Shown here in pieces: positions 3,246 through 35,734 of a stretch of DNA of 64,000 bases (the first letter of the stretch is position 1; each line of letters opens with the position of its first letter). The DNA lies in the NCBI GenBank assembly GCA_047611265.1, contig JBLFWM010000001.1, positions 82,155 to 146,154 of the forward strand. The letters run 5' to 3'. Under the pieces are notes generated by a model that did no database searches, was not told the origin of the DNA, and was given only the letters and a program-made list of their open reading frames with translations. This DNA comes from Gammaproteobacteria bacterium (GTDB lineage: Bacteria; Pseudomonadota; Gammaproteobacteria; GCA-002705445; GCA-002716945). Made by a program: the position numbers and the translations under genes.

Positions 3246-3254
3246 GAAAAAATT

Positions 3255-4913: not shown

Positions 4914-5806
4914 TTTATAACGGTATAAAAATAGATAATACGTTTGCCGAGGCTTTTAATATGAAAGCTAGTCGTATAATCGTAACAGCAGATAATTTAA
5001 AATGGGCAAAACATGCCTGTGATTCTTTCACTGGGTTTGCTACATCTGTGATTGCTTGCGGTATAGAAGCTGGTATAGAAAAAAAATTAAAATCATCAGA
5101 AACACCTGATAATAGGCCCGGCTACTCAATCTTGTTATTTTCAATGTCTAGAAGCCAGCTAGAAAAACAGTTAGAGGTCAGGGTTGGCCAATGCATTCTT
5201 ACCTGTCCAACAACAGCTATATTTTCTGGCATGGTTGGAGAAGATATAATCCCATTAGGTAAAAATTTAAGATATTTTGGTGATGGCCATCAAACATCAA
5301 AAAAAATATTAGATAGAAGGTTCTGGCGTATACCAGTTATGGATGGAGAGTTTCTTTGCGAAGAATCAACTGCCCGTGTACCAGCTATAGGTGGTGGTAA
5401 TTTTTTAGTATTAAGCACTAACAGGAAATCATGCTTGTCTGCCTGCGAGACAGCAATAAATTCAATTAAGAATCAGCCTAATATCATAACTCCTTTTCCT
5501 GGTGGTGTCGTAAGGTCTGGATCAAAAGTTGGTTCAAAATATAAAGCCTTAATAGCATCTACTAATGATGCTTTTTGCCCAACATTAAAGAGTGTCACAA
5601 AAAGTACTCTGCCATCTAATGTGAATTGTGTGCTGGAAATAGTTATTAATGGCTTAACATTTGATGATATTAATGAGGCAATCAAAACTTGTATAAAAAG
5701 TATTTCTAAGATGAAAATAAAAAAAGATATAGTTGCTATATCCGCGGGAAACTATGGTGGAAAACTAGGGCAATACCATTTCCATTTAAGGAAAGTGATG
5801 AAATGA
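4910..5806 (+). CDS. fhcD: formylmethanofuran:H4MPT formyltransferase
   Basis: DNTFAEAF, TGFATSVIAC, RVGQCILTCPT, WRIPVMDGEF, PFPGGVVRSGSKVGS, SAGNYGGKLG. Confidence 0.93.
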   Translation: MIYNGIKIDNTFAEAFNMKASRIIVTADNLKWAKHACDSFTGFATSVIACGIEAGIEKKLKSSETPDNRPGYSILLFSMSRSQLEKQLEVRVGQCILTCPTTAIFSGMVGEDIIPLGKNLRYFGDGHQTSKKILDRRFWRIPVMDGEFLCEESTARVPAIGGGNFLVLSTNRKSCLSACETAINSIKNQPNIITPFPGGVVRSGSKVGSKYKALIASTNDAFCPTLKSVTKSTLPSNVNCVLEIVINGLTFDDINEAIKTCIKSISKMKIKKDIVAISAGNYGGKLGQYHFHLRKVMK

Positions 5807-6600
5807 ACCCAGTAATACTAAAGCTAAAGAAGAAAATAAAGTATAGGATGGATATGTCATTCTTATCTAAACCCCATAAAGATATATCTAAGCTTTCATC
5901 TCAAACCATATCTTATGGGAATAAGCAGTTTAAAATTAAAGAACTTTTTACTATAAAGGGCAGTGATATAAAAAATATTATTATCCAATCTTCAGTTGAT
6001 TTAATGGATAATATTGGTAAAGAATTAAATAATATTAATATTACCGTGCATGGAAACGTTGGTTATGCATTTGGTGAACAAATGCTTTCTGGAAAACTTA
6101 TATTACATGGTAATGCACTAGACTATGCAGCGTCTGGAATCAAAGGAGGCTCTATATTTATACATGGAAATTCTGGTGACTATACAGGTGGAAAAACTAA
6201 TCATGGGAATATTGGCATAGTCGATGGTTTCTTGTATGTGAAAGGAAATGTTGGAAATAATTCTATTGAGAGAATGCGAAGAGGCAATGTAATTATAGAA
6301 GGCAATATAGGTGATTATGCTTGCAATGATATGATATCGGGAACTATCATCATAAAAGGCAAGATAGGTAAATTTTTTGCTGAAGGAATAAAGCGTGGGA
6401 CTATTTTTACAAAAGATAAGAAAGTAACTAAAGAGTATGCTAGATCTAATGATGCTGAATATAATTTTACAAAGTTTTATTTTAAAGAAGTGTCAGATAT
6501 AATTGGTAAAAAAATATTTTTAGAAAATAAAAATTTAACAAGATACTGTGGTAATACGAATAGTAAAAATCTTTCAGAAATTTTTTTATTTAAATTATAA
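5803..6600 (+). CDS. fhcC: formyltransferase/hydrolase complex subunit C (GXGXG beta-helix)
   Basis: Repeated GN-x-G/M-x-x-G beta-helix units, ERMRRG; last gene of the fhc operon. Confidence 0.88.
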   Translation: MNPVILKLKKKIKYRMDMSFLSKPHKDISKLSSQTISYGNKQFKIKELFTIKGSDIKNIIIQSSVDLMDNIGKELNNINITVHGNVGYAFGEQMLSGKLILHGNALDYAASGIKGGSIFIHGNSGDYTGGKTNHGNIGIVDGFLYVKGNVGNNSIERMRRGNVIIEGNIGDYACNDMISGTIIIKGKIGKFFAEGIKRGTIFTKDKKVTKEYARSNDAEYNFTKFYFKEVSDIIGKKIFLENKNLTRYCGNTNSKNLSEIFLFKL

Positions 6601-6604
6601 AATA

Positions 6605-7126
6605 TTATTTTCCAAAGTGCTCATCGATGAGTTTAACGAAAAATAATTCCATTTCCGGAGAAGAAAAGTCTCTTTTCCCTACTGCTCTATATAACATTTT
6701 ACCATCTGGACTAATTAAGAATGTTGTTGGTAATCCAGGCACTCCCCAATCATACTCTAGATCCATATCAATAAAAATTGGAAAAGAAACAGGGCTTATA
6801 TTTAAATAATTTTTAATATTTTCAGGTCCTGGCCCAACATGAATCCCTATGACGGTAAACTTTTCACTATTAAGCCTTTTATGAATAGCTTCCAAGGTAG
6901 GCATTTCAGCTTTACAAGGATTACACCAAGTGGCCCAAAAATTCACCAACAAAAATTTTCCTTCTAAACTTTTTAACGTATGAATTTTTTCATCCATACC
7001 TATTAAACTAAATTCTGGAGCTCTTTTGTGACTAGGCATAGGGTCCATTAAATAACCGGATGCGTTTAAATTATATGTAAAAAAAAGTGTAGGTAATAAA
7101 ACAAATATTGATAGTAATTTTTTCAT
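6605..7126 (-). CDS. TlpA/ResA-family exported thioredoxin-like disulfide reductase
   Basis: Signal peptide, APEFSL, LVNFWATWCNPC, GLPTTFLI. Confidence 0.85.
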   Translation of the reverse strand: MKKLLSIFVLLPTLFFTYNLNASGYLMDPMPSHKRAPEFSLIGMDEKIHTLKSLEGKFLLVNFWATWCNPCKAEMPTLEAIHKRLNSEKFTVIGIHVGPGPENIKNYLNISPVSFPIFIDMDLEYDWGVPGLPTTFLISPDGKMLYRAVGKRDFSSPEMELFFVKLIDEHFGK

Positions 7127-7132
7127 ATAATT

Positions 7133-9112
7133 CTAATACTTTGGTTTATTTTCATGGAACCAGTTTGGATCTTGTAGTGATATCTCACCAATAGGCGCGG
7201 CCTTGGCATCCAATATAAGTTCATTGACATTTGAGCCCGTTAAAGTTTTGAGAAACTCAACTATATTCTCAACTTCATTTTCCGATAAACTCAGTGGGAA
7301 CATTAATGGGCTTATATTATCATTTTTCATCTTACCAGATGTTTTGATACCACCCTTATTATAAAACTCAACAACCTCTTTCAATGTCTGTAATGATCCA
7401 TTATGCATATAAGGAGCTGTTATCTCAACATTACGTAAACCTGAAGTTCTGAATTTCCATCTATCGTTAGGATCTTGAGTTACAGTATATAACCCTAAAT
7501 CATTTGGCGCTATTTCATCTTTAAAGGCAACGTTATTCCTATAAGAAGATGTATCGATCTCAATAGTTAGTCCTGGCACCAAAGTTAATTGTTTTGTTGG
7601 TGGCTCAACATGCATAGATGCTTTAAAGCCAATGCCCGTATTATGTAATTTTTCATCAGTAAATAGAGTGGAATCCTCTCCTACTAAGTGACATGTTACA
7701 CAAGCTCCTTTTCCAGAAAATAATTTAAAACCTTCTTTAGCCTTGTTAGAGATAGCATTTCTTTCACCGCCATAATACCAACGGTCAAATGCAGAATTGC
7801 CGCTTAATAATGTATACTCATATGCTGAAAAAGCTTTGCTGATGGTATCTATTGACGGACCTGTTCCATAAGCCTCTTCGAATAGATTTTCATAATCAGG
7901 AATATTTCTTATTTTATTGATTAAATAACCTGGGGATGGGTTTGCCATTTCATTATGACTTAAAAGTGGGCCCCAAACCTGGTTCTCCAAAGAATGTTCT
8001 CTGCCATCATGAAAGAGACGGCTTAGCAAAGCTGTGTTTAATATTGATGGGGAATTTCTAGGAACAGACCTTCCTTCTGTACCCACGGCTGTTGCCAATT
8101 CATTGTGAGCAAAACCCATTTCAGGTACATGGCATATTGCACATGAGATTGTATCTGTATGAGATAGCCTTCTGTCGTAAAACATTTTTCTTCCCAAGGC
8201 AATTTTCTCTCTAGTTAGGTCAGTACCCTTTGTCATATTTAATTCAGGTAACCCTAGTATCTGAGAATTAGCAATTGCATATAAGTTGGTTGCCTGGCCT
8301 ACTCTTTCTAAAGTCTGCGAATCTGTTACATAGTCACCACTCTCATATCCTTTTTTTGAGTCACCTGGTCTTGCAAGAGATGATCCAGCTGGGACAACAT
8401 TTTGAGTAGAAGCAACTACCACTGTTCCGTTTTGAGATTCAGGATGTAAAAGTGTTTTTATATCATTTATCAAAACATCAGAATGTAAAAAAGAAACACT
8501 ATAAATACTTCTTATTTTCTTATCTTTATCAATCAGGAATACTCTGAGGATATGTGATATAGAACCAATATAATTTCCTTTCTCATCATATTCTTTGATG
8601 ATGCGCTGGCTATATTTATCTAATATAGGATCAAGGTCTTTAATTGAATTAGTGGTTAAGAATTTCCAGTCTACAGAACCAGAGTCAGTACCATCACCAT
8701 ATAATTTCATCACATCAGGCGAATCATTTTCAGGATCAAAACTTAGACTTATCATGCTCACTTGTTTGCCAATAACAGGGTCCTTATCAAGTATATTTTT
8801 AATTTTATGAAATACTGCTGTTGCCAGTGGGCATCCATTTATATCAGCACATGTGCTGTACATAAAATTTAACAATACTATCTTATCATCGTATATATCG
8901 TGAAGAGACTTATTGAGGCCATCAGCATCTATTACATTGCCATTAGAAGCCGGCTTATAGCTTGCTAGAGTGTATGAACCTGGAACTGGTGCATCAAACG
9001 TAAGTTGATTATAACCTGGCGCTAATACCGTAGATGTATAACTATCTTCTTGCGCATAACTAGGGTTTAAAAACACTACTAAAAGTAGTAAATATATCCG
9101 TGATTTCTTCAT
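7133..9112 (-). CDS. SCO/SenC domain fused to a MauG-like di-heme cytochrome c peroxidase; likely MtoX maturation factor
   Basis: Signal peptide; SCO-like half (YSTCADINGCP, SLSFDPENDSP, ISHILRVFLID); CcP/MauG half with CAICH and CVTCH, LGRKMFYDRRLS, FHDGR, TAPYMHNGS; directly downstream of mtoX. Confidence 0.85.
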   Translation of the reverse strand: MKKSRIYLLLLVVFLNPSYAQEDSYTSTVLAPGYNQLTFDAPVPGSYTLASYKPASNGNVIDADGLNKSLHDIYDDKIVLLNFMYSTCADINGCPLATAVFHKIKNILDKDPVIGKQVSMISLSFDPENDSPDVMKLYGDGTDSGSVDWKFLTTNSIKDLDPILDKYSQRIIKEYDEKGNYIGSISHILRVFLIDKDKKIRSIYSVSFLHSDVLINDIKTLLHPESQNGTVVVASTQNVVPAGSSLARPGDSKKGYESGDYVTDSQTLERVGQATNLYAIANSQILGLPELNMTKGTDLTREKIALGRKMFYDRRLSHTDTISCAICHVPEMGFAHNELATAVGTEGRSVPRNSPSILNTALLSRLFHDGREHSLENQVWGPLLSHNEMANPSPGYLINKIRNIPDYENLFEEAYGTGPSIDTISKAFSAYEYTLLSGNSAFDRWYYGGERNAISNKAKEGFKLFSGKGACVTCHLVGEDSTLFTDEKLHNTGIGFKASMHVEPPTKQLTLVPGLTIEIDTSSYRNNVAFKDEIAPNDLGLYTVTQDPNDRWKFRTSGLRNVEITAPYMHNGSLQTLKEVVEFYNKGGIKTSGKMKNDNISPLMFPLSLSENEVENIVEFLKTLTGSNVNELILDAKAAPIGEISLQDPNWFHENKPKY

Positions 9113-9167
9113 ATCAAAATCATACCATAAATGTATGTTATGTAAAATTTTAGAATTTTATATACAC

Positions 9168-9201
9168 AAAAAAAAAGGCCGCTTACCTGAGTAAGCGACC
9201 T
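9168..9201 (-). terminator. intrinsic terminator after mtoX
   Basis: Minus strand AGGTCGCTTAC-TCAG-GTAAGCGGCCT followed by a T run. Confidence 0.85.
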
Positions 9202-9266
9202 AAAAGTTTACAGCCATTTTACGTTATTTACCACCAATGAGGGTGTCTAATAACTATGACAATAAT

Positions 9267-10637
9267 TTAGCGATTAAGTTCTGCTAAATTTTTATTATCT
9301 GCTGTTTTCGAATATAACGAATATGCTCCGAATCTCATTTGATGAGGCATACCTAGTTTTTCTGCAGCAAAATCAATAGTGAATTTAAGAACTAAATCAT
9401 TATTCTCTTGATCATACGCTTTGAAAAATTGTGGTGGACCTTCAACATCTGGCACATCACCTTTATCCCAATTAGATAATAGTGAAGTTGTAAAGTAAAT
9501 ACGTTTACCATCCCAACTTTGAGATAACATGTTTACTTGGTCGCCAATTTTATGAGCTTTAACTTCCACAGCATTGTGTGGGTTAGAGATATCAAATATT
9601 CTAGTCATACCATCATTCCAAGTATTTACCCATAGATGTTTATCATCAGCTGTGATTGAAATATCAACAGGTAGTGGAATTTTAGATGGATCACCAATAG
9701 TACCTACAGACTCAGCATGCCATTCATTATCTTTTTCATAGATAAGCCATATTTGAGAAGTAAGTGCTGTTGTAGTGAAACAGTAGTTATGATCAGAACC
9801 CCATGCGCATCTAATTTCTAGAGGTGCACCTGGTACATCAAAAACTTTCTTTGGTTTACGAGTATGAAGATCCCAAACAACGACTGTGTTACCAAATCGT
9901 CCCATAGCATCTGCATCGCCCATTAATTTACCAAGGTTCATCATGTAATTGTTCCATCCAGTAAATGAAGATGTAATCATTACATTTCTACGTGGTAGTG
10001 CACGAATGTCATAACCATAACCGTCAGCAAATTGTCCTGTTTTCACAGCACCATTTAAATTGCCGTCAGTTGGCATGTCATAAGTAGCTACATATGTTCC
10101 ATCGTTTGTATATTCTACAAGCGCTGTTCTACCACCAAAGTCTTGGTTGTTAGAAAGACCAGAAATCATCATTCTTCCTGGTAGTGCATATGTTGTATGT
10201 GGTCCAACGATACCACCACTAGCTTTCGTAAAGTCAGTTATAACTTTATGAAGTTTAGGCTTAGATGGGTTCGTGTGAACATCAAAAATAAATATTTTTC
10301 CAGTATCTAATGTAGCTGCCCATAAATAATGCCTATCATCTGTAAAACCAGAATGATGTGCTTCATTACGACCACCGACAGAAGTATGTCCGATTACATT
10401 GCCATAGTGTGGCGACGCAGGGTTAACAGCAACTGTTACCAGTTTATCTTGTTCATCCCCTACCCCTACTTGTCCTAAAGTCCATACATATACATAATCT
10501 TCCTGGCCAACAATCTTAGCCATATATGGTGACATGCATGTCTCATCAGAGAATACATGTGTTGGGACTAGCACTAAAGCAAGAAAGCTTGACATCAACA
10601 TACCGTATACGGTTGACATAAGTTTTCTTATTTTCAT
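9267..10637 (-). CDS. mtoX: methanethiol oxidase (SBP56/SELENBP1 family), exported
   Basis: Signal peptide then DETCMSPY, VWTLG...DKLVTV, NEAHHSGFTDDR, GPHT, GYGYD, SSFTGW, PLEIR, SQSWDGKRIYFTTSLLSNWD, HQMRFG; adjacent SCO/MauG as in known mto loci; RBS AGGAG. Confidence 0.9.
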   Translation of the reverse strand: MKIRKLMSTVYGMLMSSFLALVLVPTHVFSDETCMSPYMAKIVGQEDYVYVWTLGQVGVGDEQDKLVTVAVNPASPHYGNVIGHTSVGGRNEAHHSGFTDDRHYLWAATLDTGKIFIFDVHTNPSKPKLHKVITDFTKASGGIVGPHTTYALPGRMMISGLSNNQDFGGRTALVEYTNDGTYVATYDMPTDGNLNGAVKTGQFADGYGYDIRALPRRNVMITSSFTGWNNYMMNLGKLMGDADAMGRFGNTVVVWDLHTRKPKKVFDVPGAPLEIRCAWGSDHNYCFTTTALTSQIWLIYEKDNEWHAESVGTIGDPSKIPLPVDISITADDKHLWVNTWNDGMTRIFDISNPHNAVEVKAHKIGDQVNMLSQSWDGKRIYFTTSLLSNWDKGDVPDVEGPPQFFKAYDQENNDLVLKFTIDFAAEKLGMPHQMRFGAYSLYSKTADNKNLAELNR

Positions 10638-10670
10638 AATTGCGCGCTCCTATTTGTTTCGCTTAGTTTA

Positions 10671-10702
10671 AGAGGGCCACCTACTTAAGTAAGTGACCCT
10701 CT
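10671..10702 (-). other. strong RNA hairpin between the FadL-like gene and mtoX (attenuating or stabilising element)
   Basis: Minus strand AGAGGGTCACTTACT-TA-AGTAGGTGGCCCTCT, two G-U pairs only on this strand; no long U tract. Confidence 0.65.
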
Positions 10703-10728
10703 ATTCTTTTTATTATCTTCTAGTTAAC

Positions 10729-12234
10729 TTAGAAAGTCCAAGTTAAAGATCCACCAAGGTGGAACGAAGATACTGTAGCTTTAGTATGATCTAAGGCTGC
10801 GCAACCTGCGCGAGCTAAACCACCAGTTAAAGCTGTCCCTGCAACAGACGTTGATCCGCCAGCTGATAGAGAAACTACACCTTCTTGATTAGCACCGAAA
10901 CACTTATCTTCTTCAAGTTGGAATGCAACATGAGTATCAAGTGTTAACATTGGAGCTAAGAATCCATCGATTCCAAGACCCGCAGATATACGATGTTTAT
11001 AAATTACAGGTGTTTCCATAGCTTGGAAGTACGACATAAACAATGGATACATTGCTGCTGTATAAGTACTACCATCAGCATTTACACCACCGATAGTTTT
11101 GATTTGAACACCATCAGCAACTTTGTCTTTTAGTGGATCATCAGCATAACCATATCCAAGTCTCCATTTCAATGGTCCTTGAGTTAACTGAAGACCTACT
11201 GAGTAGACTTCTTGGTCTTCGTAGAATTCATTAAAGAATCTAGCGTCAGACCATGCTTTATGTGTAATATCAGCCATAACTAACAAGTTACCGTTCATTA
11301 GACCGTTAAAAGCAAAACCAAGACCTATATTCATAGGTTGCTCTACTCTCACATCTTGTCTACAAACATTACCACTAGTTTGGTTACATTTAATAAGTGG
11401 TTGTTGTTGAGCGATTCCATTACCGTTAGATAGTCCACCTGAACCAGCCATAGATGTTACGTGTAAGTTATCATATTCATGCGGTTGTTCAGTTTGTACA
11501 TAAGCACCAACTGTTAAACCAGGCATTACTTTCATACGTCCACCAAGTGTCGCACGGAAACCAATGTCATGAACCATAGTGCCAGAACCTGTTAAACCAG
11601 CTTCTAACATTGCATATGTAATTGTTGCCGAAACACCAACATCTAAGTTAGGAGTAACAGCCATACCAATACCAGCGTTAACGCCTAAATTGATAAGTTC
11701 TGCTGCTGCACCTAGAGTGTTTGAATTATGCGTATAATTCACACCGATACCAGATGTAGCTGATACACCAACACCAAGAACGACAGGAATACCAAGACCA
11801 GTTAAATCTTGAGTTACTGCCACAGTTGGTACTGCGTATACATCAGCTTTTGATGTTGCATCGAATCCATAAGCACCACTTCCTGCAAGAGCTCTGCCCG
11901 TTGCACCGTTAGTGATGTTTACTAAAGTCGCTGCTTCGCCTACTGCGTAGCCAGCTGATCCATCATGTTGCATGCGAGCACGCGGCATGTAGAATGTAGC
12001 ACCGAACATAAAGTTAGTACCGCCGTAGTATGTAGTCAATGTTGCAGGGTTACCGAAAACCGCTGATACTGGATCTTCAACATGTGCAATACTCGTACCG
12101 GCCATAGCGGCTGATGCTCCGTGAAACACGTTATGTAGATCGAAACCATGTGGTCCGGCAAATGCTGCACCTGAACCCATCGATAAGGCTGTACCTACCG
12201 CTGCTCCAAGTTTCCAATTGCTATTAATTTTCAT
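10729..12234 (-). CDS. FadL/TodX-family outer-membrane channel for hydrophobic substrates
   Basis: Signal peptide ending AAFA, hatch motif GASAAMAG...SAVFGNPATL, amphipathic beta-strands, C-terminal Phe (TWTF); RBS GAGG. Confidence 0.78.
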   Translation of the reverse strand: MKINSNWKLGAAVGTALSMGSGAAFAGPHGFDLHNVFHGASAAMAGTSIAHVEDPVSAVFGNPATLTTYYGGTNFMFGATFYMPRARMQHDGSAGYAVGEAATLVNITNGATGRALAGSGAYGFDATSKADVYAVPTVAVTQDLTGLGIPVVLGVGVSATSGIGVNYTHNSNTLGAAAELINLGVNAGIGMAVTPNLDVGVSATITYAMLEAGLTGSGTMVHDIGFRATLGGRMKVMPGLTVGAYVQTEQPHEYDNLHVTSMAGSGGLSNGNGIAQQQPLIKCNQTSGNVCRQDVRVEQPMNIGLGFAFNGLMNGNLLVMADITHKAWSDARFFNEFYEDQEVYSVGLQLTQGPLKWRLGYGYADDPLKDKVADGVQIKTIGGVNADGSTYTAAMYPLFMSYFQAMETPVIYKHRISAGLGIDGFLAPMLTLDTHVAFQLEEDKCFGANQEGVVSLSAGGSTSVAGTALTGGLARAGCAALDHTKATVSSFHLGGSLTWTF

Positions 12235-12284
12235 ATTTTTTCCTCATTATATATATATAATAAATAACGTTAATATTTGGGAAC

Positions 12285-12300
12285 TAGACATCAATGTCTA
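12285..12300. promoter_or_regulatory. palindrome upstream of the FadL-like gene, candidate operator
   Basis: TAGACAT-CA-ATGTCTA, perfect 7-bp inverted repeat ~50 nt before the start codon. Confidence 0.35.
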
Positions 12301-12438
12301 TAAAAGAACAATCCTTCCCCCTGTATATCCATACACAATAAAAACATTTTTATCGTTAGTTTCATTTAACACTTAGCAAGCTAAGTATTAAACGATCCAA
12401 CTATAAAGTACTAATTAAGCACTTATAGTTAAATTCGT

Positions 12439-12711
12439 TTACCCCTCATCTCCTGGTCCGTAGACTCCATCTTCAAACCATTCCCATGGTCGATTACCAG
12501 CAACCTTAATGAATAAGTATACACTTATCATATTTGCCACAACTAATAGAAAACCTATTAACAGTGCCACAGGCCAACCAGATAATCCAGGCATTGATCC
12601 AGCAGCAAAATGCCACGTTGGAAACATACCGCTGAAGAAGTAATAACAGGCTACCCAAAACGCCACGACCACATAAGTACCCATAGCTGTTTTTCCGAAT
12701 AAAAATCCCAT
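12439..12711 (-). CDS. small membrane protein of unknown function (two predicted TM helices)
   Basis: 90 aa, two hydrophobic segments, Trp-rich acidic tail RPWEWFEDG; strong RBS GAGGAG. Confidence 0.7.
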   Translation of the reverse strand: MGFLFGKTAMGTYVVVAFWVACYYFFSGMFPTWHFAAGSMPGLSGWPVALLIGFLLVVANMISVYLFIKVAGNRPWEWFEDGVYGPGDEG

Positions 12712-12815
12712 ATCATTATCTCCTCTTTATTAGTATTTACTGATATATTAATGTTATATATCAATATATTGTTCTTATATAGTAACTTATATTTAGTCAT
12801 TGTAAATAGTTTTTA

Positions 12816-12839
12816 TCTATAAAGAAGATTCTTTATAGA
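12816..12839. other. perfect 11-bp inverted repeat after the reductase gene (terminator or operator)
   Basis: TCTATAAAGAA-GA-TTCTTTATAGA. Confidence 0.45.
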
Positions 12840-12873
12840 ACTAAATTAATTAAATTTTGTCTACTGAGGAATT

Positions 12874-13965
12874 TTATAAATTACTTGAGTCTGTAAAACT
12901 ATCAAAGAATATTTCGTCACTTTTTATGCCGAGTTTTTCTAGCAAGGCAGTTGCTGCATCAACCATTGGGGGTGGCCCACATAAATACCCCTGCCAATCA
13001 GAAATATCCATGTTATTTTTTTTAACAATATTTTCTTCAAAGTAATCCGTAACAAATCCACGCCCACCTTTCCAATCACTGTCTTCAGGTTCCATGCTTA
13101 AGACTGGTATAAAATCAAATTTATAATCTTTGTTCCAGTTTTCCTTAATACTTTCTAATTCTTTTATACAATAAAGATCATCTTGTGTTCTTGCGCCAAA
13201 CAAGAAGACAACATCTCTTTTTGATTGGTCTAAAACTCCGCCTTCAAGAATAGATTTGATTGGAGCAAGTCCACTTCCACCCGCAATACAAACAATTGGC
13301 GTAGCTTTTTCTCTTAAATAAAATGAACCGAAAGGTCCGTTAAGTGTAACGCATTGACCTGCGTCTCTTTTATCATCAAACAGCCATTCAGTGAATTTGC
13401 CACCAGGAGTTTTTCTAATAAAAAATGTAAACTCTTTAGGATTTTCATTTTTTGGTGCACTGGCAAAAGAATAAGACCTTGGTCTATCTAGACCTTCGAT
13501 TGATAACTCTGCCCACATTCCAGGCAATGCACAATGCTCAACTTCCTTTTCAGTTTCCACTGTAACTTTCATAATATCAGTAGTTAACATTTCAGTAGAT
13601 TTAATGATTGAGTTACATGTCTGAGGAGGCATTCTAACTAAGTCACCTAGTTCAACCTCAATTACAGAATCCATTGTTAATCTTGATTGGCATGCTAAGA
13701 AAATATCATTATCTAATTCTTCTTTTGTTAACGTATAGGAGTAATCAGATGTTGGCTTCACTTTGCCTTTGATAAGTTTGCATTTGCAAGTACCACATGT
13801 TCCAAATTTACAGTCATGCGGCCAGTCTAAGCCCTGTCCTAATGCTGCTGATAAAACACTTTCATTTTGTTTCACGAATATTTCTTTATTTGACGGTAAG
13901 ATTGTTGCTGTACTGTCTACAGGTTTCGTTCCGTAAAACCATAAATATTTATACATATTAAACAT
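12874..13965 (-). CDS. XylA-like monooxygenase reductase: [2Fe-2S] ferredoxin plus FAD/NAD(P)H domains
   Basis: PHDCKFGTCGTCK...LACQ, RSYSFA, GGKFT, GPFG, IAGGSGLAP, YLCGPPPM, FFDSF. Confidence 0.88.
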   Translation of the reverse strand: MFNMYKYLWFYGTKPVDSTATILPSNKEIFVKQNESVLSAALGQGLDWPHDCKFGTCGTCKCKLIKGKVKPTSDYSYTLTKEELDNDIFLACQSRLTMDSVIEVELGDLVRMPPQTCNSIIKSTEMLTTDIMKVTVETEKEVEHCALPGMWAELSIEGLDRPRSYSFASAPKNENPKEFTFFIRKTPGGKFTEWLFDDKRDAGQCVTLNGPFGSFYLREKATPIVCIAGGSGLAPIKSILEGGVLDQSKRDVVFLFGARTQDDLYCIKELESIKENWNKDYKFDFIPVLSMEPEDSDWKGGRGFVTDYFEENIVKKNNMDISDWQGYLCGPPPMVDAATALLEKLGIKSDEIFFDSFTDSSNL

Positions 13966-14028
13966 GATTGAGAGTCCTTTGCATAAAGTCTAACTAATAA
14001 TCTGTCAATAAAGATAACACTATGCTAT

Positions 14029-14064
14029 AAAAAAAGAAACCTCAATAAGACTATTGAGGCTTCT
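14029..14064 (-). terminator. intrinsic terminator after the GST-like gene
   Basis: Minus strand AGAAGCCTCAATA-GTCT-TATTGAGGTTTCT followed by a T run. Confidence 0.8.
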
Positions 14065-14091
14065 AAATTAGACTTAGTTATTATTAACTAA

Positions 14092-14742
14092 TTAACCAGC
14101 ATTAACACGAATTTCTCTCATGTTTCCTGCGTCATGGTCTGCTTTCGTAGCCATGCAAGAAAATGGATTAATCGACTCTTTACTAGTAGATGGATGAGAT
14201 TGCACTGCAGCAAACCAAGTATTAACTCTTGATCTTGAACTTATAGCGGCACCCTTGCCCATATTCATAGCTACTTGACAAACACCAGCCCAACAAACAT
14301 CAGCTAATGTAAACTGACCACAAACGTAGTCACCTTTCATGTTTCCCGCATCTGTTCCAAGAGTAGTGTCTAGAACATCCAATGCAGATGCTAGTGATGC
14401 GTCATCACCTACATTACATTGAGCGGCTACACCCATTTCTTGCCACATACGTGCTCTAACAGTACCATTTCTAGCAACTAAAGATGGTCCAAAACCCTTG
14501 TCATCTATATAAGATAAGCAAGCAATTAAACCATAGTTTGTTTGAGTACGATCTTTCAACACAGGACCGATTCCTAATGGTGACATACCACGAATTGACC
14601 CGGAAGGACTCCAGTCAGTTTCAGCATGACAATCCACGTCAATACCTTTTTCACCTGCAGCTAACATGCAAGCATTTGTATGAGGACATGCCGGACTTCC
14701 GTATAAATCCAACGCCTCTCTTAAATGATCTCCTATTGCCAT
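14092..14742 (-). CDS. glutathione S-transferase-family protein with N-terminal CPH motif
   Basis: LYGSPACPH, EKGID, SPLGIGPVL, C-domain DYVCGQFTLAD...WF...HPS; RBS AGGGG. Confidence 0.72.
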   Translation of the reverse strand: MAIGDHLREALDLYGSPACPHTNACMLAAGEKGIDVDCHAETDWSPSGSIRGMSPLGIGPVLKDRTQTNYGLIACLSYIDDKGFGPSLVARNGTVRARMWQEMGVAAQCNVGDDASLASALDVLDTTLGTDAGNMKGDYVCGQFTLADVCWAGVCQVAMNMGKGAAISSRSRVNTWFAAVQSHPSTSKESINPFSCMATKADHDAGNMREIRVNAG

Positions 14743-14798
14743 AATATTTACCCCCTATTATGATTGTTGTTTACAAATCTTTATTAAAATAATAAAGA

Positions 14799-14978
14799 CT
14801 ATTCGTGTATTTTAAGAGCGCCAGAAGGACAGTTACCTACTGTAGCTCTGATGTTTTCTTCTGAGTCAGCGGTCGTATCAATTACGAATGCTCCGTCAAC
14901 TACTTTAAATACATTTGGTGCACCTTTAACGCATTCTCCAGCGTGTGTACAAGTTTCTGCATCATATGTTACTTTCAT
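14799..14978 (-). CDS. 59-aa divergent mono-cluster Fe-S protein (Fer4_19/YjdI-like), absent from the ORF track
   Basis: Hand translation MKVTYDAETCTHAGECVKGAPNVFKVVDGAFVIDTTADSEENIRATVGNCPSGALKIHE; CxHxxxC...CPSGAL; RBS GGAG. Confidence 0.85.
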   Translation of the reverse strand: MKVTYDAETCTHAGECVKGAPNVFKVVDGAFVIDTTADSEENIRATVGNCPSGALKIHE

Positions 14979-15095
14979 ATCTTTCTCCGATGTTATAACA
15001 ACGACCTATTCTTTTGTCGCTTATATATAAATATAACTTAAATTTATTCAAGTTACTTTATTTTTTTTGAATTTTTTTGAATATTAGCGTTTGTT

Positions 15096-15130
15096 AAAAT
15101 AGAAAGTAGGTACCCATAAAGGGTACCTAC
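15096..15130 (-). terminator. intrinsic terminator after the monooxygenase gene
   Basis: Perfect 10-bp inverted repeat GTAGGTACCC-N5-GGGTACCTAC followed on the minus strand by TTTCTATTTT. Confidence 0.75.
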
Positions 15131-15169
15131 AATTTAACAATCTTTTGAATTGTTTGTTAACCTATAAGG

Positions 15170-16417
15170 TTACTTCTTAGCGGTTCTCATTCCAAGATCA
15201 ACGTTACCAGCATCGCCTAAGACGTCGCCGTTGAAAGGTGTGCCTTCATAACCAACTTCTTTGTTGATTCTTGCAGCAATTGCCTTTTCTTCGTCAGTCG
15301 CAAAGTGAGTATCCCAAGCAGCAAGTCTTTTACGCATGTACCAATGCCAGATTGGCGGTACTAGTGCGATAAAGAATACTACGAAGTATCCCCATCCAGT
15401 GTTTGGGCAACCTACATTTTCAAGTTCCCAGAAGTGAGTTTCTCCACGATCATGGTGGTCAGCTTGACGACCAATTTCGATAAAGAACCAACTTGTGAAA
15501 GCTGTTGAGTTATCCCAGTTATGGCGATAATCAATAGGTTGATCTTTAACACGGATTAAACCGTAATGCTCTAGGTAATTTAAAGCTTCTAATTCGAAGT
15601 TTGAAATTGCCCAGATTAGAGCTAATACAGCCATACCTATCCAGCCGCCTGCTGCAAAGAACAGAGCTACTGAAGGAACAGCCATTAGATAGCCACGAAT
15701 CCAACGGTTTTGCCATGAAATGAAAGAAACACCCATACGAGCTAGTCTCTCTTTTTCCATGTTATACAAAAATTTAGATTGACCTAAATATGATAGTGGG
15801 TAATGTCCGTAAATTGTGCGTCCACGTGGAGCAGTTGCAGGATCATCTTCACTAGCAAGTTCTAGGTGATGGTTGTATACATGTGCGTAGCAGAAATGTG
15901 CTGAGCCAGATAGTCCCATCATTGTACGTGAAATTACAAAACCAAAACCTTTGGTATGTGAAAGTTCATGTCCGTATATAATACCGATACCAATAAAGAT
16001 ACCAGATGATAATGTAGCGCCATACAAGTTAAGTCCTGAAATACCTTCAGTCATAACTATAATGCCAGGCAGCCCAATTGCAGCACCTAAGTCCATTATT
16101 ACAGCACCTGCTTCTCCACCTAAAGACATATAAGAGTATAATCTCCATGCCATTACGAGTTGAAACAAAATGAATACAGGTAACATAAAGTACATAGTCA
16201 AGTTTTGGAAACTTGCCCATCCAATTGAGTTACCGGATTTGTCAAAGCCTACGCCTGAAGATTCAAATTTTGTAGCGATGTCTATTAATAGACCTACAAA
16301 AAGTAAAACTACACCTAACCAAGACATAATGCCTCCGATTAGAACACCAGCTCCTGCTACTATAATAAGTACAGGTGCTAGTAAATAGCGTACATTTAAT
16401 AAAATATTTCCGATCAT
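15170..16417 (-). CDS. XylM/AlkB-family membrane-bound non-heme di-iron monooxygenase
   Basis: His boxes HELSH, HVYNHH, NYLEHYG, QADHH; DPATAPRG, PPIW; XylM-like C-terminus LAAWDTHFATDEE; start moved to ATG 16417 by GGGAGG RBS at 16423-16428 (415 aa). Confidence 0.88.
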   Translation of the reverse strand: MIGNILLNVRYLLAPVLIIVAGAGVLIGGIMSWLGVVLLFVGLLIDIATKFESSGVGFDKSGNSIGWASFQNLTMYFMLPVFILFQLVMAWRLYSYMSLGGEAGAVIMDLGAAIGLPGIIVMTEGISGLNLYGATLSSGIFIGIGIIYGHELSHTKGFGFVISRTMMGLSGSAHFCYAHVYNHHLELASEDDPATAPRGRTIYGHYPLSYLGQSKFLYNMEKERLARMGVSFISWQNRWIRGYLMAVPSVALFFAAGGWIGMAVLALIWAISNFELEALNYLEHYGLIRVKDQPIDYRHNWDNSTAFTSWFFIEIGRQADHHDRGETHFWELENVGCPNTGWGYFVVFFIALVPPIWHWYMRKRLAAWDTHFATDEEKAIAARINKEVGYEGTPFNGDVLGDAGNVDLGMRTAKK

Positions 16418-16691
16418 CTTAACCTCCCAGATTAATCGAATAATTATACCTGCATCTAAAATCATTAAATTCTAGAACAGGCTCCTTAGGGAATATTCCC
16501 AATGAATTAATTTTGGCACCTCTCTGTTATCGTGTCAAAACTATTTTGTAAGTATTTGTTACATTAGAAATTGCTTAAATACTAATAAAATAGCACCTAT
16601 GCGGTGTTTAGAAATATAATGGTGTATACTTAATTTTGTAATTAAAAATATCTTATCAATTTAATATTTTTTTATTAACTTAGGCATAAAA

Positions 16692-17249
16692 ATGAACGTG
16701 AAAGACCTTATAATAATTGTAGTTTTGCTAATAATTCATCCGAAATTTTTAGCTGCAATGCCTGATGTTAACAAGGCATTATCAGATGTTGAATTTCAAT
16801 CAATAGAGTCTACAAATATTAAGCTTACTGAATACAAGGGTAAAATTATTTTATTATTTTTTGGCTACACAAATTGTCCAGATATATGTCCGACTACTCT
16901 ATTGGATATTTCAAGGACATTGAAAGAATTAAAAGATGACGCTAAAAAAGTACAGGCTGTCTTTGTAAGTGTTGATTATAAAAGAGATACTCCTCAGTAT
17001 TTAAATAAATATGTAAATTATTTTGATGAAAGGATATTAGGTATATCATCTGATAAAAAAAATATTGATAAATTAAATAAGTACTTTAAAACTAATTACT
17101 CATTACTAGATTCCAATAAAGAGAATTATCTTGTGGAGCACAGTTCAAATCTATACATCATAGGTGAGGATTTGGTTGTTAAAAGGATAATCGCTCATGG
17201 ACTGCCCTATACTGAAATTACAAAAGCTGTAAAAAAGCTTATCAATTAA
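16692..17249 (+). CDS. SCO1/SenC copper chaperone
   Basis: FFGYTNCPDICP, FVSVD...RDTP, VEHSS; N-terminal signal/anchor. Confidence 0.9.
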   Translation: MNVKDLIIIVVLLIIHPKFLAAMPDVNKALSDVEFQSIESTNIKLTEYKGKIILLFFGYTNCPDICPTTLLDISRTLKELKDDAKKVQAVFVSVDYKRDTPQYLNKYVNYFDERILGISSDKKNIDKLNKYFKTNYSLLDSNKENYLVEHSSNLYIIGEDLVVKRIIAHGLPYTEITKAVKKLIN

Positions 17250-17614
17250 TCATATTTAATATATTTAAATCTTGGGTCGTCAGGAGTGCCTTCCAAGGTA
17301 TTATCTTCTGAGGCTGGGTTCCAATGAACGACAGCTTCAATTTTTTCTGCTAATAAAAAATCTTTGTCAGTTATCCCTTTGGCTGCATGATTTTGAAGTT
17401 TTACAATTACAAAAGCATATGATGCAGAGAGATCAGGGTGATGCCAGGCAGCTTCAGCAAGGTGTCCGATTGTGTTTATAACCATGAGCGTGCCCTTCCA
17501 GCCACTTGTTTTGTACTTTCTTCTTATCCAGCCATTTTCGTAATACCAGTTTGGTAACTTACTTTCCAGATACTTTTCTATCTCTTCAAGACTATATACT
17601 TTCTCATTTGACAC
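17246..17614 (-). CDS. pterin-4a-carbinolamine dehydratase family protein (PcbD-like, common in H4MPT gene islands)
   Basis: AEAAWHHPDL, HAAKGITDKDF; GTG start with AGGAG RBS. Confidence 0.8.
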   Translation of the reverse strand: MSNEKVYSLEEIEKYLESKLPNWYYENGWIRRKYKTSGWKGTLMVINTIGHLAEAAWHHPDLSASYAFVIVKLQNHAAKGITDKDFLLAEKIEAVVHWNPASEDNTLEGTPDDPRFKYIKYD

Positions 17615-17725
17615 TTTAAATCTCCTGCTCTTTTTTAACCATATAAATACACGGCTTGATTAGTCATATAAAGAACTTATAATGACATAAGCTAGATGAA
17701 TAACTATCCTCAGGATACCATATAA

Positions 17726-19402
17726 ATGGATATAAAAAGAAAACTTCAAAAAAATAAGAAACTCAGGAATAGAGGTAGGCAAGTCAACTTTGAAGTTAGG
17801 GATAAGTTGGTTAAGCTGTTAGGAGTTTCAAACTATCGCCGTGATCATCTAATTGAATATCTCCATGTTATCCAAGATAGCCAAGGTCATATCAATGAAG
17901 AATTTATGACTGCCTTGGCAAATTTATTAAAAATATCACAAACAGAAGTTTATGAGGTAGCAACCTTCTATCATCATTTTGATATCATAAAGGGCGATGA
18001 AAAAATTCCTCCAAGTTTAACCGTGAGAGTTTGCGACTCAGTAACATGCGAAATAAATGGTGCTAATGAGTTAGCTCAAAATTTAGATGATTATTTCAAA
18101 GGTACGGTAAGAATACAAAAGGTTCCATGTATTGGACGATGTCAATCTGCTCCTGTAGCAGTAGTGAAATTTAATCCTGTCGATAATGCAAATCTTAAAA
18201 ATGTAAAACAAGCTGTTGACGCAAAAGAATATAATCCATCTATACCCAAATACATCAACATGGAAGAATACATAAATGATGGTGGATATAAATTACTTAA
18301 TAAACTAAAAAATAATGAAGTTGATGGCGACAAAATTTTAACAGAACTTGAAAACTCTAATTTACGAGGCCTTGGCGGCGCTGGTTTTCCAGCTGGGAAA
18401 AAATGGCGTATTTTAAAAGACCAACCCTCTCCAAGATTACTAGCTATCAACATTGATGAGGGAGAGCCAGGCACATTTAAAGATAGGTTTTATCTTGAGA
18501 CGGATCCGCATAGATTTTTTGAAGGCATGTTGATTGCATCAGAAGTTGTGGGCATAGATAAAATATATATTTACTTAAGAGATGAGTATGCTGCAGTCAG
18601 AATTTTAATGGCAAAAGAGTTGAGTAAGTTAAGGGATAAATTTAAAGACAAGATTCCTGAAATTGAACTTAGAAGAGGAGCTGGTGCGTATATATGTGGC
18701 GAAGAATCAGCAATGATAGAGTCGATAGAAGGAAAGAAAGGTATGCCAAGATTAAGACCTCCCTTTGTTGCTCAAGTTGGATTATTTGGAAGACCTACAC
18801 TGGAACATAATATGGAAACTTTGTACTGGGTTAGGGATGTCGCAGAAAAAGGTGCAGACTGGTTTACATCATTTGGTCGCAATGGAAGAAAAGGTTTTAG
18901 ATCTTTTTCTGTTAGCGGTAGAGTTAAAAACCCTGGCGTTCATTTAGCCCCAGCAGGCATTACAGTTAAAGAACTCATTAAGGAGTATGCTGGTGGCATG
19001 CTCGATGGACATGAGTTTTATGCATATTTCCCAGGTGGCGCATCTGGCGGTATTCTTCCAGCAAGCATGGGCGATATACCTCTTGATTTTGATACACTAA
19101 ATGAATATGACTGTTTCATAGGTTCCGCTGCAATCATGGTACTTTCTAGTCATGATAAAGTTATGCGAGCAGCATCTAATACTATGAGTTTTTTCGAACA
19201 TGAGTCATGTGGGAAATGCACACCTTGTAGAGTTGGGACTTCAAAAGCTACTAAATTGATGGAGGAAGATAAATGGAATATTCCATTATTAAATGACTTA
19301 GCAATAGTGATGTCTGACGCATCTATTTGTGGTTTAGGTCAAGCTGCATCAAATCCTCTAAAATCTGTGATAAAATATTTCCCAGAGGAGTTAGAAAAAT
19401 GA
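17726..19402 (+). CDS. NAD-dependent formate dehydrogenase beta (diaphorase) subunit, NuoE/NuoF-like fusion
   Basis: GRQV...HLIEYLHVIQD, VATFY, CDSVTC/CIGRC, LRGLGGAGFP, DEGEPGTFKD, GAGAYICGEE, ESCGKCTPCR, CGLG. Confidence 0.88.
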   Translation: MDIKRKLQKNKKLRNRGRQVNFEVRDKLVKLLGVSNYRRDHLIEYLHVIQDSQGHINEEFMTALANLLKISQTEVYEVATFYHHFDIIKGDEKIPPSLTVRVCDSVTCEINGANELAQNLDDYFKGTVRIQKVPCIGRCQSAPVAVVKFNPVDNANLKNVKQAVDAKEYNPSIPKYINMEEYINDGGYKLLNKLKNNEVDGDKILTELENSNLRGLGGAGFPAGKKWRILKDQPSPRLLAINIDEGEPGTFKDRFYLETDPHRFFEGMLIASEVVGIDKIYIYLRDEYAAVRILMAKELSKLRDKFKDKIPEIELRRGAGAYICGEESAMIESIEGKKGMPRLRPPFVAQVGLFGRPTLEHNMETLYWVRDVAEKGADWFTSFGRNGRKGFRSFSVSGRVKNPGVHLAPAGITVKELIKEYAGGMLDGHEFYAYFPGGASGGILPASMGDIPLDFDTLNEYDCFIGSAAIMVLSSHDKVMRAASNTMSFFEHESCGKCTPCRVGTSKATKLMEEDKWNIPLLNDLAIVMSDASICGLGQAASNPLKSVIKYFPEELEK

Positions 19403-35303: not shown

Positions 35304-35734
35304 CTAATAGAGTAAAGTTTTTGCTATGCCTTCTTTTATTGCCATATCAATTAGTAAATTCTGCTGGAGGGTTATCCAAATCTTTATCCAATCCGGATGC
35401 AGAAGTTTTTATTATAAGTCCATTAAATAAAGAGATAGTTTCAAGTCCAGTTGAAATAATCTTTGGTATTACTAATATGACTGTTGCTCCCGCTGGGATT
35501 AAAAAAGAATTATCTGGACATCATCATTTAGTTATTGATACTGATGTACTGCCAAATCTCTCCAGACCCATCCCCTCTAATGAGAAATATTTACATTTTG
35601 GTAAAGGCCAAACAAGAACTTTGATAGATTTAAAGAGTGGCACTCATACACTCCAATTAATTTTTGGAGATTATGTGCATATACCACATGATAAGCCATT
35701 AATATCTAAAAAAATCACTATTACTGTAGAATGA
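35300..35734 (+). CDS. DUF4399-like exported His-motif protein
   Basis: Signal peptide, PAG...GHHHL, HFGKGQT, GTHTLQL..GD..H. Confidence 0.75.
   Translation: MTNRVKFLLCLLLLPYQLVNSAGGLSKSLSNPDAEVFIISPLNKEIVSSPVEIIFGITNMTVAPAGIKKELSGHHHLVIDTDVLPNLSRPIPSNEKYLHFGKGQTRTLIDLKSGTHTLQLIFGDYVHIPHDKPLISKKITITVE

Follow-up and report, generated by a model that had tools for sequence, protein, structure and literature searches.

A candidate dimethylsulfide-demethylating membrane monooxygenase linked to methanethiol oxidase genes in a small gammaproteobacterial genome

Of the biogenic sulfur gases that leave the ocean, dimethylsulfide (DMS) is the main one, and bacteria consume most of it before it escapes; to our knowledge, DmoA is the only enzyme known to convert it to methanethiol. 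Could the locus described here encode another enzyme for this step? The window (the whole stretch of DNA that was analysed, 64,000 nucleotides long) covers positions 82,155 to 146,154 of contig JBLFWM010000001.1 in the gammaproteobacterial assembly GCA_047611265.1 (genome G000). It contains a six-gene module for a putative membrane monooxygenase (MO), immediately followed on the same strand by the gene of methanethiol oxidase (mtoX) and two further mto genes, and an initial annotation had proposed it as a new DMS oxidation system. The cluster is conserved and has strong ties to the metabolism of methanethiol and formaldehyde, and its monooxygenase falls within a clade of the AlkB/XylM family that is distinct and has strong support. 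On balance, we favour the reading that the six genes (10729–16417) encode a multi-component membrane monooxygenase that would hydroxylate a methyl group of DMS, giving methanethiol and formaldehyde.

The reaction that opens DMS breakdown is still drawn as a question mark in a 2022 paper (PMC9563715) and in a December 2025 preprint (10.64898/2025.12.05.692484). Where they list enzymes acting on DMS, that preprint and a 2026 review (PMC13360808) name only DmoA, DdhA, DsoB, Tmm and an “unidentified DMS methyltransferase”, and dmoA is described as rare or absent in gutless-worm symbiont metagenomes (10.64898/2025.12.05.692484). For Methylophaga thiooxydans, the first DMS enzyme was reported as missing, and a monooxygenase that had escaped recognition was considered possible (PMC6548844). 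The literature searched contained no AlkB-type DMS enzyme and no prior description of the cluster, and searches on Methylophaga with alkB or hexadecane, and on Porisulfidus/Oxydemutator, returned nothing on this enzyme.

Linkage and co-occurrence of the monooxygenase with mtoX

The initial annotation's assignment of mtoX (SBP56 family; 9267–10637, minus strand) was confirmed by a match to the equivalog model NF052453 at 697.7 bits (cut-off 650), accompanied by a match to PF05694 (E 1.2e-47). A SCO1-MauG fusion gene (7133–9112, minus; PF02630 and PF03150), the proposed copper or maturation factor of MtoX, lies 155 bp downstream, so that both features expected of a genuine mtoX, the equivalog match and the adjacent SCO1/MauG gene, are present. 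It is followed by a gene for a TlpA/ResA-like periplasmic thiol-disulfide oxidoreductase (6605–7126, minus; AhpC-TSA and Redoxin domains, with matches to the ResA and TlpA models). These three genes (6605–10637) occur in the same order, fusion included, in the mto clusters of M. thiooxydans and Hyphomicrobium sp. VS (PMC6548844, PMC5739008); in M. thiooxydans the same fusion is described downstream of both mtoX genes, with a TlpA-like gene after SCO1/MauG (PMC6548844). The M. thiooxydans cluster continues with genes for a persulfide dioxygenase, SqrB and SulP, which the window lacks, whereas the mto genes of the window are joined head-to-tail with the monooxygenase module. The new part of the cluster is the six-gene module upstream of the known mto genes.

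The conservation of this arrangement was examined by tblastn with the window proteins in 80 loci from species-representative genomes. An MO orthologue (86–97% identity) is present in 18 of them in the gene order of the window, which runs from MO through the genes for an iron-sulfur (Fe-S) protein, a glutathione S-transferase (GST)-fold protein, a reductase, a small membrane protein and an outer-membrane protein to mtoX. All ten orthologous loci that are long enough include mtoX, SCO-MauG and TlpA, and the other eight stop at a contig edge. The distance between MO and mtoX is 5.7–5.9 kb in 13/13 genomes of the window's order that have both genes on one contig. Because the same order recurs in 10/10 loci and 13/13 genomes, the arrangement is not due to chance.

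Beyond the orthologues, gene content around MO is more varied. Among 46 distant loci, 15 carry the Fe-S and GST genes (14 of them also the reductase gene), 2 carry the GST and reductase genes, 16 have the GST gene with or without the channel gene, and 13 have none of these nearby. A distance to mtoX of less than 10 kb was seen in only one of the 46, locus L053 from a Methylophaga metagenome-assembled genome (MAG), whose mtoX lies 4.6 kb upstream on the opposite strand. Five genomes with distant loci that were checked whole all possess mtoX, 15–24 kb from MO in three of them; distances of 15–24 kb were recorded for G401, G403, G405, G145 and G312, and in G483 the two genes are 8 kb apart. The deepest branches of the clade, which are the most telling, show closer associations. 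In G012, MO is followed by a truncated globin gene, a reductase gene, mtoX, SCO-MauG and SCO, and then by genes for a Zn-dependent alcohol dehydrogenase and an esterase; in G351, the reductase gene is divergent from MO, and MO is followed by the gene of a 71-residue membrane protein and then by mtoX. The two genes are therefore adjacent in three unrelated gene arrangements and, because gene orders differ between families, we argue for repeated selection for their linkage.

Several further genes were observed beside these distant MO copies. The dehydrogenase and esterase genes of G012 (L086:17268–19244; Pfam domains checked) resemble, in their order and N-termini, those of glutathione-dependent formaldehyde dehydrogenase and S-formylglutathione hydrolase. 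Truncated globin genes (PF01152) directly after MO were found at L053:11247–11609 and 15236–15730 and at L086:11142–11504 (G012), and a similar reading frame in G271 (L088:11220–11621) may also encode a globin. Globin genes are absent from the window's lineage; their products might deliver oxygen or bind sulfide or NO. In the Methylophaga MAG, a CbbQ/NorQ-type AAA+ ATPase and a VWA-domain protein are encoded just upstream of MO (L053:6773–9690). Such pairs insert metals into enzymes.

The two genes are also associated at the level of whole genomes. Clade membership in the class sample was set at E <= 1e-130, the next-best hit lying at 1e-58. In an even sample of the class (401 genomes), the clade is present in 16 genomes from 11 families, of which 14 possess mtoX (13 over the cut-off; that of G351 is split at a contig end), compared with 16 of the 385 genomes without the clade. 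The two MO genomes without mtoX are G348 (97% complete) and G099 (80% complete). Of 83 Methylophagaceae genomes, 13 have both genes, 1 has only MO, 2 have only mtoX and 67 have neither, which corresponds to mtoX in 13/14 genomes with MO and in 2/69 without it. An even sample of the phylum (401 genomes) contained the clade in only two genomes, G000 and G151. The five distant-locus genomes checked whole, mentioned above, are further MO genomes, and all carry mtoX. Since related genomes are not independent, these counts are given without a significance value. Close homologues, whose occurrence mostly without mtoX or one-carbon (C1) genes would have spoken against the initial proposal, are overwhelmingly found in genomes with mtoX, and often adjoin it.

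The window's order comprises a single family with genomes of 0.6–1.2 Mb. MO is present in 32 of its 37 genomes, including 17/17 of those of high quality, and is core to this whole order of roughly 1-Mb genomes. An order-level table (22 genomes with both genes, 10 with MO only, 3 with mtoX only and 2 with neither) was dropped as a test of co-occurrence, because assemblies often break at this place and seven of the mtoX matches are contig-end fragments.

The monooxygenase and its partner proteins

The MO gene (15170–16417, minus) encodes a di-iron integral-membrane monooxygenase of 415 residues; the reading frame is open to 16465, and the methionine at 16417 corresponds to the start of the homologues. 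The protein matches PF00487 (FA_desaturase) at 99.1 bits (gathering cut-off 29.7) and none of the NCBIfam models. A profile built from nine clade members finds the solved AlkB structures 8sbb (E 4.3e-35) and 8f6t (E 4.4e-31), in agreement with the AlkB/XylM-type hydroxylase announced by the initial annotation. Identity is 29% to XylM of pWW0 and about 30% to plasmid AlkBs. The motifs HELSH, AHVYNHH and NYLEHYGL are invariant in nine clade sequences (alignment A1) and align with XylM and AlkB-like sequences; they agree with the family's first (HExxH) and second (xHxxxHH) histidine boxes and with its NYxEHYG motif. The third box departs from the family pattern H-x-x-H-H. It reads RQADHH in 8/8 aligned clade members, glutamine replacing the first histidine, and reads HINHH in XylM and HS[DH]HH in AlkB-like sequences.

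In whole-genome searches, scores drop from 1e-130 (55–58% identity) directly to 1e-58 (34%), a gap by which the clade is sharply bounded. In a maximum-likelihood tree of 46 rows, the 36 clade rows group together (support 100/100), apart from the group that holds XylM, an Alteromonas XylM-like protein, a Rhodococcus AlkB and seven AlkB-like genome hits; in a second tree of 90 rows, the clade has an SH-aLRT support of 100. Both trees omit the ten loci that lack a stop-free MO covering >=60% of the query (L045, L046, L052, L054, L058, L059, L061, L080, L096 and L099) as well as L081 and L083, which are copies of the window. The 90-row tree further omits L004_2, L076_2, L049, L084, L094 and L100, and the rows of the 46-row tree were picked from the remainder to span all groups. 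MO thus constitutes a distinct clade of the AlkB/XylM family with strong support, outside both the XylM and the AlkB clades, and the trees do not support orthology with XylM or AlkB proper.

Many genomes contain two to five MO paralogues. In G000, an orphan paralogue 73% identical to the cluster copy, with all motifs intact, is found at C6:29898–31067 (locus L082) in a conserved housekeeping neighbourhood that lacks reductase, GST and channel genes. This partnerless form (68–79% identity) occurs in 16 of the 80 loci and is the sister of the cluster copy in the tree (100/99); one of its 90%-identity clusters, P0055, holds 1042 metagenomic sequences. Adjacent divergent copies, or four to five matches of which a part are fragments, were noted in G893, G405, G440 and G428, the two copies of G893 lying side by side at C24:3597–4841 and 5261–6496. 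This expansion may reflect several substrates.

Three of the proteins encoded with MO have no counterpart in the classical methyl hydroxylase systems. The Fe-S protein (14799–14978, minus; 59 residues) matches PF06902 (Fer4_19) at 58.7 bits (cut-off 24, E 6e-16). Its gene directly follows MO in all 17 orthologous loci that reach that point and in 15/46 distant loci, and it is probably an electron carrier or accessory protein of MO.

The GST-fold protein (14092–14742, minus) has weak GST_N_2 and GST_C_2 matches. Its fold is indicated both by profile, which finds the Phi-class GST 5f06 (E 6.8e-19) and also SspA, and by predicted structure: an AF2 model (pLDDT 86.1) compared by Foldseek gave AtGSTF2 and other Phi, Omega and Delta GSTs as best matches (TM 0.59–0.70, probability 1.00). 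Cys19 would occupy the catalytic position. It is invariant in 18 aligned sequences, is absent from one of 16 in a wider set (L103), and aligns with the serine of the G-x-P-x-S motif of Phi-class GSTs, presumably the catalytic residue, as would fit the title of PDB entry 4ri7 (“Ser 13 Cys”). No E-S pair, as is usual in GSTs, was observed ahead of helix 3; the motif found there, DDKGFGPSL, is specific to the clade. G000 carries a glutathione synthetase gene. The GST-fold gene is the one most tightly linked to MO. A prediction of the complex between MO (A1) and the GST-fold protein (A2) scored 0.04 (mark 0.32), which gives no answer either way. A natural fusion of a GST-fold protein (residues 1–225) with a reductase (237–594) was observed in P0277, a 613-residue protein from a cluster of 14 sequences; it hints that the two proteins act together, although a stop codon lost in assemblies would also account for it.

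The reductase (12874–13965, minus) is of the NAD(P)H-dependent XylA/BenC type, with an N-terminal plant-type 2Fe-2S domain (Fer2) followed by FAD_binding_6 and NAD_binding_1. Its XylA-like nature, already recognised in the initial annotation, is borne out by this shared domain order and by 38% identity to XylA of pWW0 over 343 residues (249 bits); the best NCBIfam match, BenC at 228.9 bits, is under the cut-off of that model. Close homologues bear JGI labels such as “xylene monooxygenase electron transfer component” and “NAD(P)H-flavin reductase/ferredoxin”.

The small two-helix membrane protein (12439–12711, minus) has 90 residues in the window and 67–92 elsewhere. It matched no Pfam or NCBIfam family, and the best score of an Atlas search (0.86) is below the meaningful value of 0.9. 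Homologues missed by tblastn share the C-terminal motif F-K-V-A-G-x-x-P-[FW]-x-W, and are encoded after the reductase in L053, L065, L067, L073, L078, L051, L062 and L072 and after MO in L087. This conservation points to a component of the module, possibly a subunit of MO.

The last gene of the module (10729–12234, minus) encodes a 501-residue protein with a signal peptide, assigned to the TodX/TbuX/CymD subgroup of the FadL family of outer-membrane channels. The protein itself has no direct Pfam match; the assignment comes from homologues (37–49% identity) that match PF03349 at 38.6–53.4 bits (cut-off 29.7), and from a six-sequence profile that finds CymD (6z34, E 3.7e-13), TodX (3brz, 1e-12) and TbuX (3bry, 1e-11), the values spanning 3.7e-13 to 1.5e-10. 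The channel is proposed to import the small hydrophobic substrate.

The initial annotation had treated the whole gene set as one system. All its parts are real, and the GST and Fe-S genes prove accessory, because the deepest clade members adjoin mtoX with MO and reductase only.

Genomic context, a possible dimethylsulfide pathway and its alternatives

The source genome is 1.08 Mb in 15 contigs, with an estimated completeness of 99.4%, and the G+C content of the window is about 31%. Open reading frame (ORF) calls and family scans recovered all ten genes listed in the initial annotation. The tenth, a SCO1/SenC copper chaperone gene divergent from MO (16692–17249, plus; PF02630, E 2.7e-36), is followed by a pterin-4a-carbinolamine dehydratase-like gene (17246–17614, minus) that was missing from that list; both keep their positions in the 18 orthologous loci. 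The cluster is flanked as originally described. On the left is a tetrahydromethanopterin (H4MPT) formaldehyde-oxidation module with mtdB (52–942, minus), the gene for beta-RFAP synthase (964–1917, minus) and fhcBADC (2001–6600, plus); on the right are the genes of an NAD-linked formate dehydrogenase (NuoE/F-like and alpha subunits; 17726–22158, plus; TIGR01591, 749 bits, cut-off 666) and, farther on, FdhD (25643–26512; PF02634). As the initial annotation held, genes for alcohol or aldehyde dehydrogenases, rubredoxin, beta-oxidation or the cleavage of aromatic rings are absent from the 41 window ORFs that were scanned; the remaining ORFs, at 36–64 kb, were judged by their N-terminal sequences alone and are housekeeping-like. 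A gene pair at 34353–35734 (plus), for a radical-SAM protein with DUF3641 and then a DUF4399 protein with a signal-like N-terminus, was observed among lipopolysaccharide and housekeeping genes.

The nine co-oriented genes are present on one strand as originally claimed, but they probably form several (or attenuated) transcription units and not a single operon, because strong terminator-like hairpins follow MO (15106–15130, minus), the GST gene (14035–14064, minus) and mtoX (9176–9201, minus). Ten terminator-like sites were found, compared with 5.2 +/- 2.4 in shuffled sequences, and these three have the longest stems of the ten, are intergenic and lie on the coding strand. Promoter-like sites were no commoner than expected by chance (51 against 50.8 in shuffles), and the region 5500–18500 has no Rfam match.

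As a whole, G000 has two Fae genes, one of them 4 kb left of the window, as well as the H4MPT pathway, formate dehydrogenase and SoxB. No DmdA or GcvT was found in it, the only GCV_T match being of 32 bits, and neither were a PQQ methanol dehydrogenase, hexulose-phosphate synthase of the ribulose monophosphate (RuMP) pathway or RuBisCO. MtoX and MO are therefore the only recognised sources of formaldehyde in G000; methanethiol has no recognised internal source there, methionine gamma-lyase not having been searched for. This content suggests a streamlined chemolithoheterotroph that gains energy by oxidising C1-sulfur compounds. Oxidation of methanol or methane was rejected as the function of MO on the same absence of a methanol dehydrogenase, and a role of MO in MtoX maturation because it has its own reductase and uptake channel.

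These elements can be assembled into a pathway. DMS would enter across the outer membrane through the TodX/CymD-like channel. Electrons would pass from NAD(P)H through the FAD and the 2Fe-2S domain of the reductase to the di-iron centre of MO, and the Fer4_19 protein may serve as an intermediate carrier. MO would then hydroxylate one S-methyl group, and the resulting hemithioacetal, CH3-S-CH2OH, would break into methanethiol and formaldehyde on the cytoplasmic side. Methanethiol would diffuse to the periplasm and be converted there to formaldehyde, sulfide and H2O2 by MtoX, whose maturation would depend on the SCO1-MauG fusion, TlpA and SCO1. Fae, the H4MPT enzymes (mtdB, fhc) and formate dehydrogenase would take formaldehyde on to CO2, and sulfide would be passed to the Sox system. 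Because neither RuMP nor RuBisCO genes were found in G000, the gain from the pathway would be energy and sulfur, not carbon. We infer DMS as the substrate and attack on carbon instead of sulfur, and likewise the roles of the Fe-S, Cys-type GST-fold and small membrane proteins.

Published work on Methylophaga bears on this proposal. Kröber and Schäfer (2019) reported that M. thiooxydans grown on DMS strongly induces a “fatty acid desaturase” (MDMS009_226), together with a “NAD(P)H flavin reductase” (MDMS009_61) as well as a porin annotated with “long chain fatty acid transport” (MDMS009_906), genes that they read as a sign of lipid homeostasis (PMC6548844). These genes may correspond to the cluster's MO, reductase and channel, whose database labels fit the three labels. 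A clade member of M. sulfidovorans (P0133), 99.7% identical to the MO of L065, bears the NCBI name “fatty acid desaturase”, and Methylophaga genomes contain only one to three PF00487 genes each. Within Methylophaga, genes of DMS metabolism are given as known from two species, M. thiooxydans and M. sulfidovorans (PMC9563715).

Expression was also followed in four RNA-seq runs (X1–X4) from one cultured organism that matches the MO cluster of the Methylophagaceae genome G483 (L101:3600–8900); depths were taken from Logan contigs, with one value per contig, so that moderate induction would be invisible. In run X3, contigs over mtoX and SCO/MauG reach depths of about 2,700–28,900. The two that cover the MO cluster, one of 55 kb and one of 6.4 kb, stand at 180 and 349, near the depths of the run's other long contigs; the contigs give no sign of an induction of the MO cluster as strong as that of mtoX. 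In runs X1 and X4, the MO cluster contigs are at depths of 29 and 20, below their flanking contigs.

Several observations weigh against a DMS methyl-hydroxylase. The full ligand set of the family is nine histidines, and with glutamine at the first position of the third box the metal site of MO differs from that of its characterised relatives. AlkB-type enzymes are able to sulfoxidise methyl thioethers. The two to five paralogues per genome and the partnerless orphan indicate that the family probably covers more than one substrate. G348 is well assembled and carries MO, GST and reductase genes without a true mtoX, a match to which is also lacking in G424 and G099; in the window's order a match was found in only 22 of the 32 MO genomes, most of the misses being fragmented assemblies. 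The Methylophagaceae counts may reflect few evolutionary events, because the MO sequences there form one clade and the genomes are related. DMS monooxygenase activity was reported as undetected in DMS-grown M. thiooxydans, for which a methyltransferase was proposed (PMC6548844). That assay may have missed a membrane-bound enzyme of several components.

The main rival to a DMS-hydroxylating MO is an enzyme for another methyl-sulfur or small volatile compound that feeds methanethiol or formaldehyde metabolism, with DMS a side substrate or none; we consider it unlikely but deserving of attention. Dimethyl disulfide or trisulfide, methyl ethyl sulfide and other methyl thioethers, dimethylselenide, methyl halides and methyl ethers would be candidates. 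The linkage and co-occurrence data point to methanethiol and C1 chemistry and not to DMS itself, the paralogues suggest several substrates, and thiol-disulfide exchange with methyl disulfides would be a fitting task for a GST-fold protein of the Cys type. However, the deepest clade members join MO and reductase to mtoX without a GST gene, and in seawater DMS far exceeds the other volatiles of this kind in abundance. In M. thiooxydans, it is growth on DMS that induces the genes with similar labels (PMC6548844).

Less likely is a plain hydrocarbon-hydroxylating function of MO, like that of AlkB, XylM and CymA, with short alkanes, alkenes or alkyl-aromatics as substrates and with mtoX near it through shared regulation or ecology. 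Membership of the AlkB/XylM family, JGI labels on homologues that include “alkane 1-monooxygenase”, and the combination of a XylA-like reductase with a TodX/CymD-like channel, typical of toluene and cymene systems, would agree with such a function. Yet the genes next to MO in the cluster types inspected include none for a CoA ligase, for ring cleavage or for an alcohol or aldehyde dehydrogenase, whereas such genes do accompany its nearest plasmid relatives: the xyl locus and the Alteromonas and Polaromonas loci carry alcohol/aldehyde dehydrogenases. G000 shows no methanol dehydrogenase, its 1.08 Mb would leave little room for hydrocarbon catabolism, and long branches with full support separate the clade from AlkB and XylM. 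A hydrocarbon function, which we regard as improbable, would also leave the strong tie to mtoX unexplained.

We give still less weight to S-oxygenation, that is, conversion of DMS to dimethyl sulfoxide (DMSO) or thioether detoxification, as by Tmm, DdhA or DsoB, with no methanethiol formed. The sulfoxidising ability of AlkB-type enzymes mentioned above is in its favour, and the changed third histidine box could alter the chemistry. Formation of DMSO, a compound whose handling genes were not searched for, gives no reason for the repeated adjacency of MO to mtoX and to formaldehyde-oxidation genes. Finally, a desaturase or hydroxylase of membrane lipids, serving their repair or adaptation under stress from MtoX-derived H2O2, as the PF00487 label and the suggestion made for the M. 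thiooxydans “fatty acid desaturase” (PMC6548844) would allow, is very improbable given the homology to AlkB hydroxylases, the NYxEHYG motif, a dedicated XylA-type reductase and TodX/CymD-type channel that a lipid-modifying enzyme would not need, and the absence of MO from 16 of the 29 mtoX genomes in the class sample.

If MO does attack the methyl group of DMS, the consequences would be considerable. The clade would provide a new functional marker for DMS consumption, S-demethylation would be a new reaction class for the AlkB family, and the presence of a full H4MPT pathway in a 1-Mb genome without methanol or methylamine dehydrogenase would be explained. The clade is abundant in metagenomes, with single 90%-identity clusters of 2784, 1042, 272 and 239 sequences. 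As a concrete, cloneable candidate that is also present in cultivable Methylophaga, such as M. sulfidovorans, MO makes the long-open first DMS step directly testable there. We advance a broader proposal more tentatively: that this clade supplies the DMS-to-methanethiol enzyme so far missing for marine Gammaproteobacteria, and that no “DMS methyltransferase” exists in Methylophaga; that it works as a five- or six-component system with a His-to-Gln di-iron site, a Cys-type GST partner and a small membrane subunit; that it is core to a free-living pelagic order of ~1-Mb genomes that burns DMS for energy; and that it constitutes a major oceanic DMS sink as well as a marker gene.

Comparison with known monooxygenase systems

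The reaction proposed here is also that of DmoAB of Hyphomicrobium sulfonivorans, in which DMS, O2 and NAD(P)H give methanethiol and formaldehyde and the partner enzyme is again MtoX. DmoA is a soluble, flavin-dependent, luciferase-like enzyme, and the two systems are unrelated in sequence, cofactor and location. The initial annotation had set DmoAB apart in this way, correctly: MO belongs to a different family, and no PF00296 luciferase-like monooxygenase of the DmoA type was found anywhere in G000.

With AlkB, which works with AlkG and AlkT (8sbb, 8f6t), MO shares the HExxH, xHxxxHH and NYxEHYGL motifs and clear homology. The AlkB system includes rubredoxin and rubredoxin reductase, neither of which is encoded among the cluster ORFs; the Rhodococcus and Methylibium loci contrast with the window cluster in having rubredoxin. 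MO further differs from AlkB by the glutamine in place of the first histidine of HSDHH, and no alcohol or aldehyde oxidation genes follow it. A chemical parallel in this family is the methyl tert-butyl ether (MTBE) monooxygenase MdpA of Methylibium petroleiphilum, an AlkB-type enzyme that acts by methyl hydroxylation, its unstable hydroxymethyl product releasing formaldehyde. A plasmid of strain PM1 encodes an “alkane 1-monooxygenase” beside two rubredoxins, 26% identical to MO, which we tentatively take to be MdpA. MdpA would be the oxygen analogue of the proposed S-demethylation, with an ether as substrate, rubredoxins as partners and no link to mtoX; its rubredoxin partners are listed in Table 7 of PMC4517660.

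The nearest likeness is to XylMA of pWW0 and to CymAaAb with CymD. These systems share with the window cluster a PF00487 membrane di-iron hydroxylase, a single reductase with an N-terminal 2Fe-2S domain and a FadL-family channel (profile matches to CymD, TodX and TbuX), and the second histidine box of XylM, AHVNTHH, resembles AHVYNHH of MO. They act on a methyl group of some small hydrophobic compound, as is proposed for MO, and the combination of an AlkB/XylM-type monooxygenase, a XylA-type reductase and a TodX/CymD-type channel is, by analogy, the architecture of methyl hydroxylases for such substrates. Unlike them, MO lies in a separate clade (100/100) with RQADHH instead of HINHH in the third box, and its cluster lacks benzyl-alcohol and benzaldehyde dehydrogenases, being linked instead to mtoX and C1 genes. 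To the common set the window adds the Fer4_19 protein, the Cys-type GST-fold protein and the small membrane protein, so that, judged from its sequences, the MO system looks like a methyl hydroxylase of the XylMA/Cym type with three extra conserved parts.

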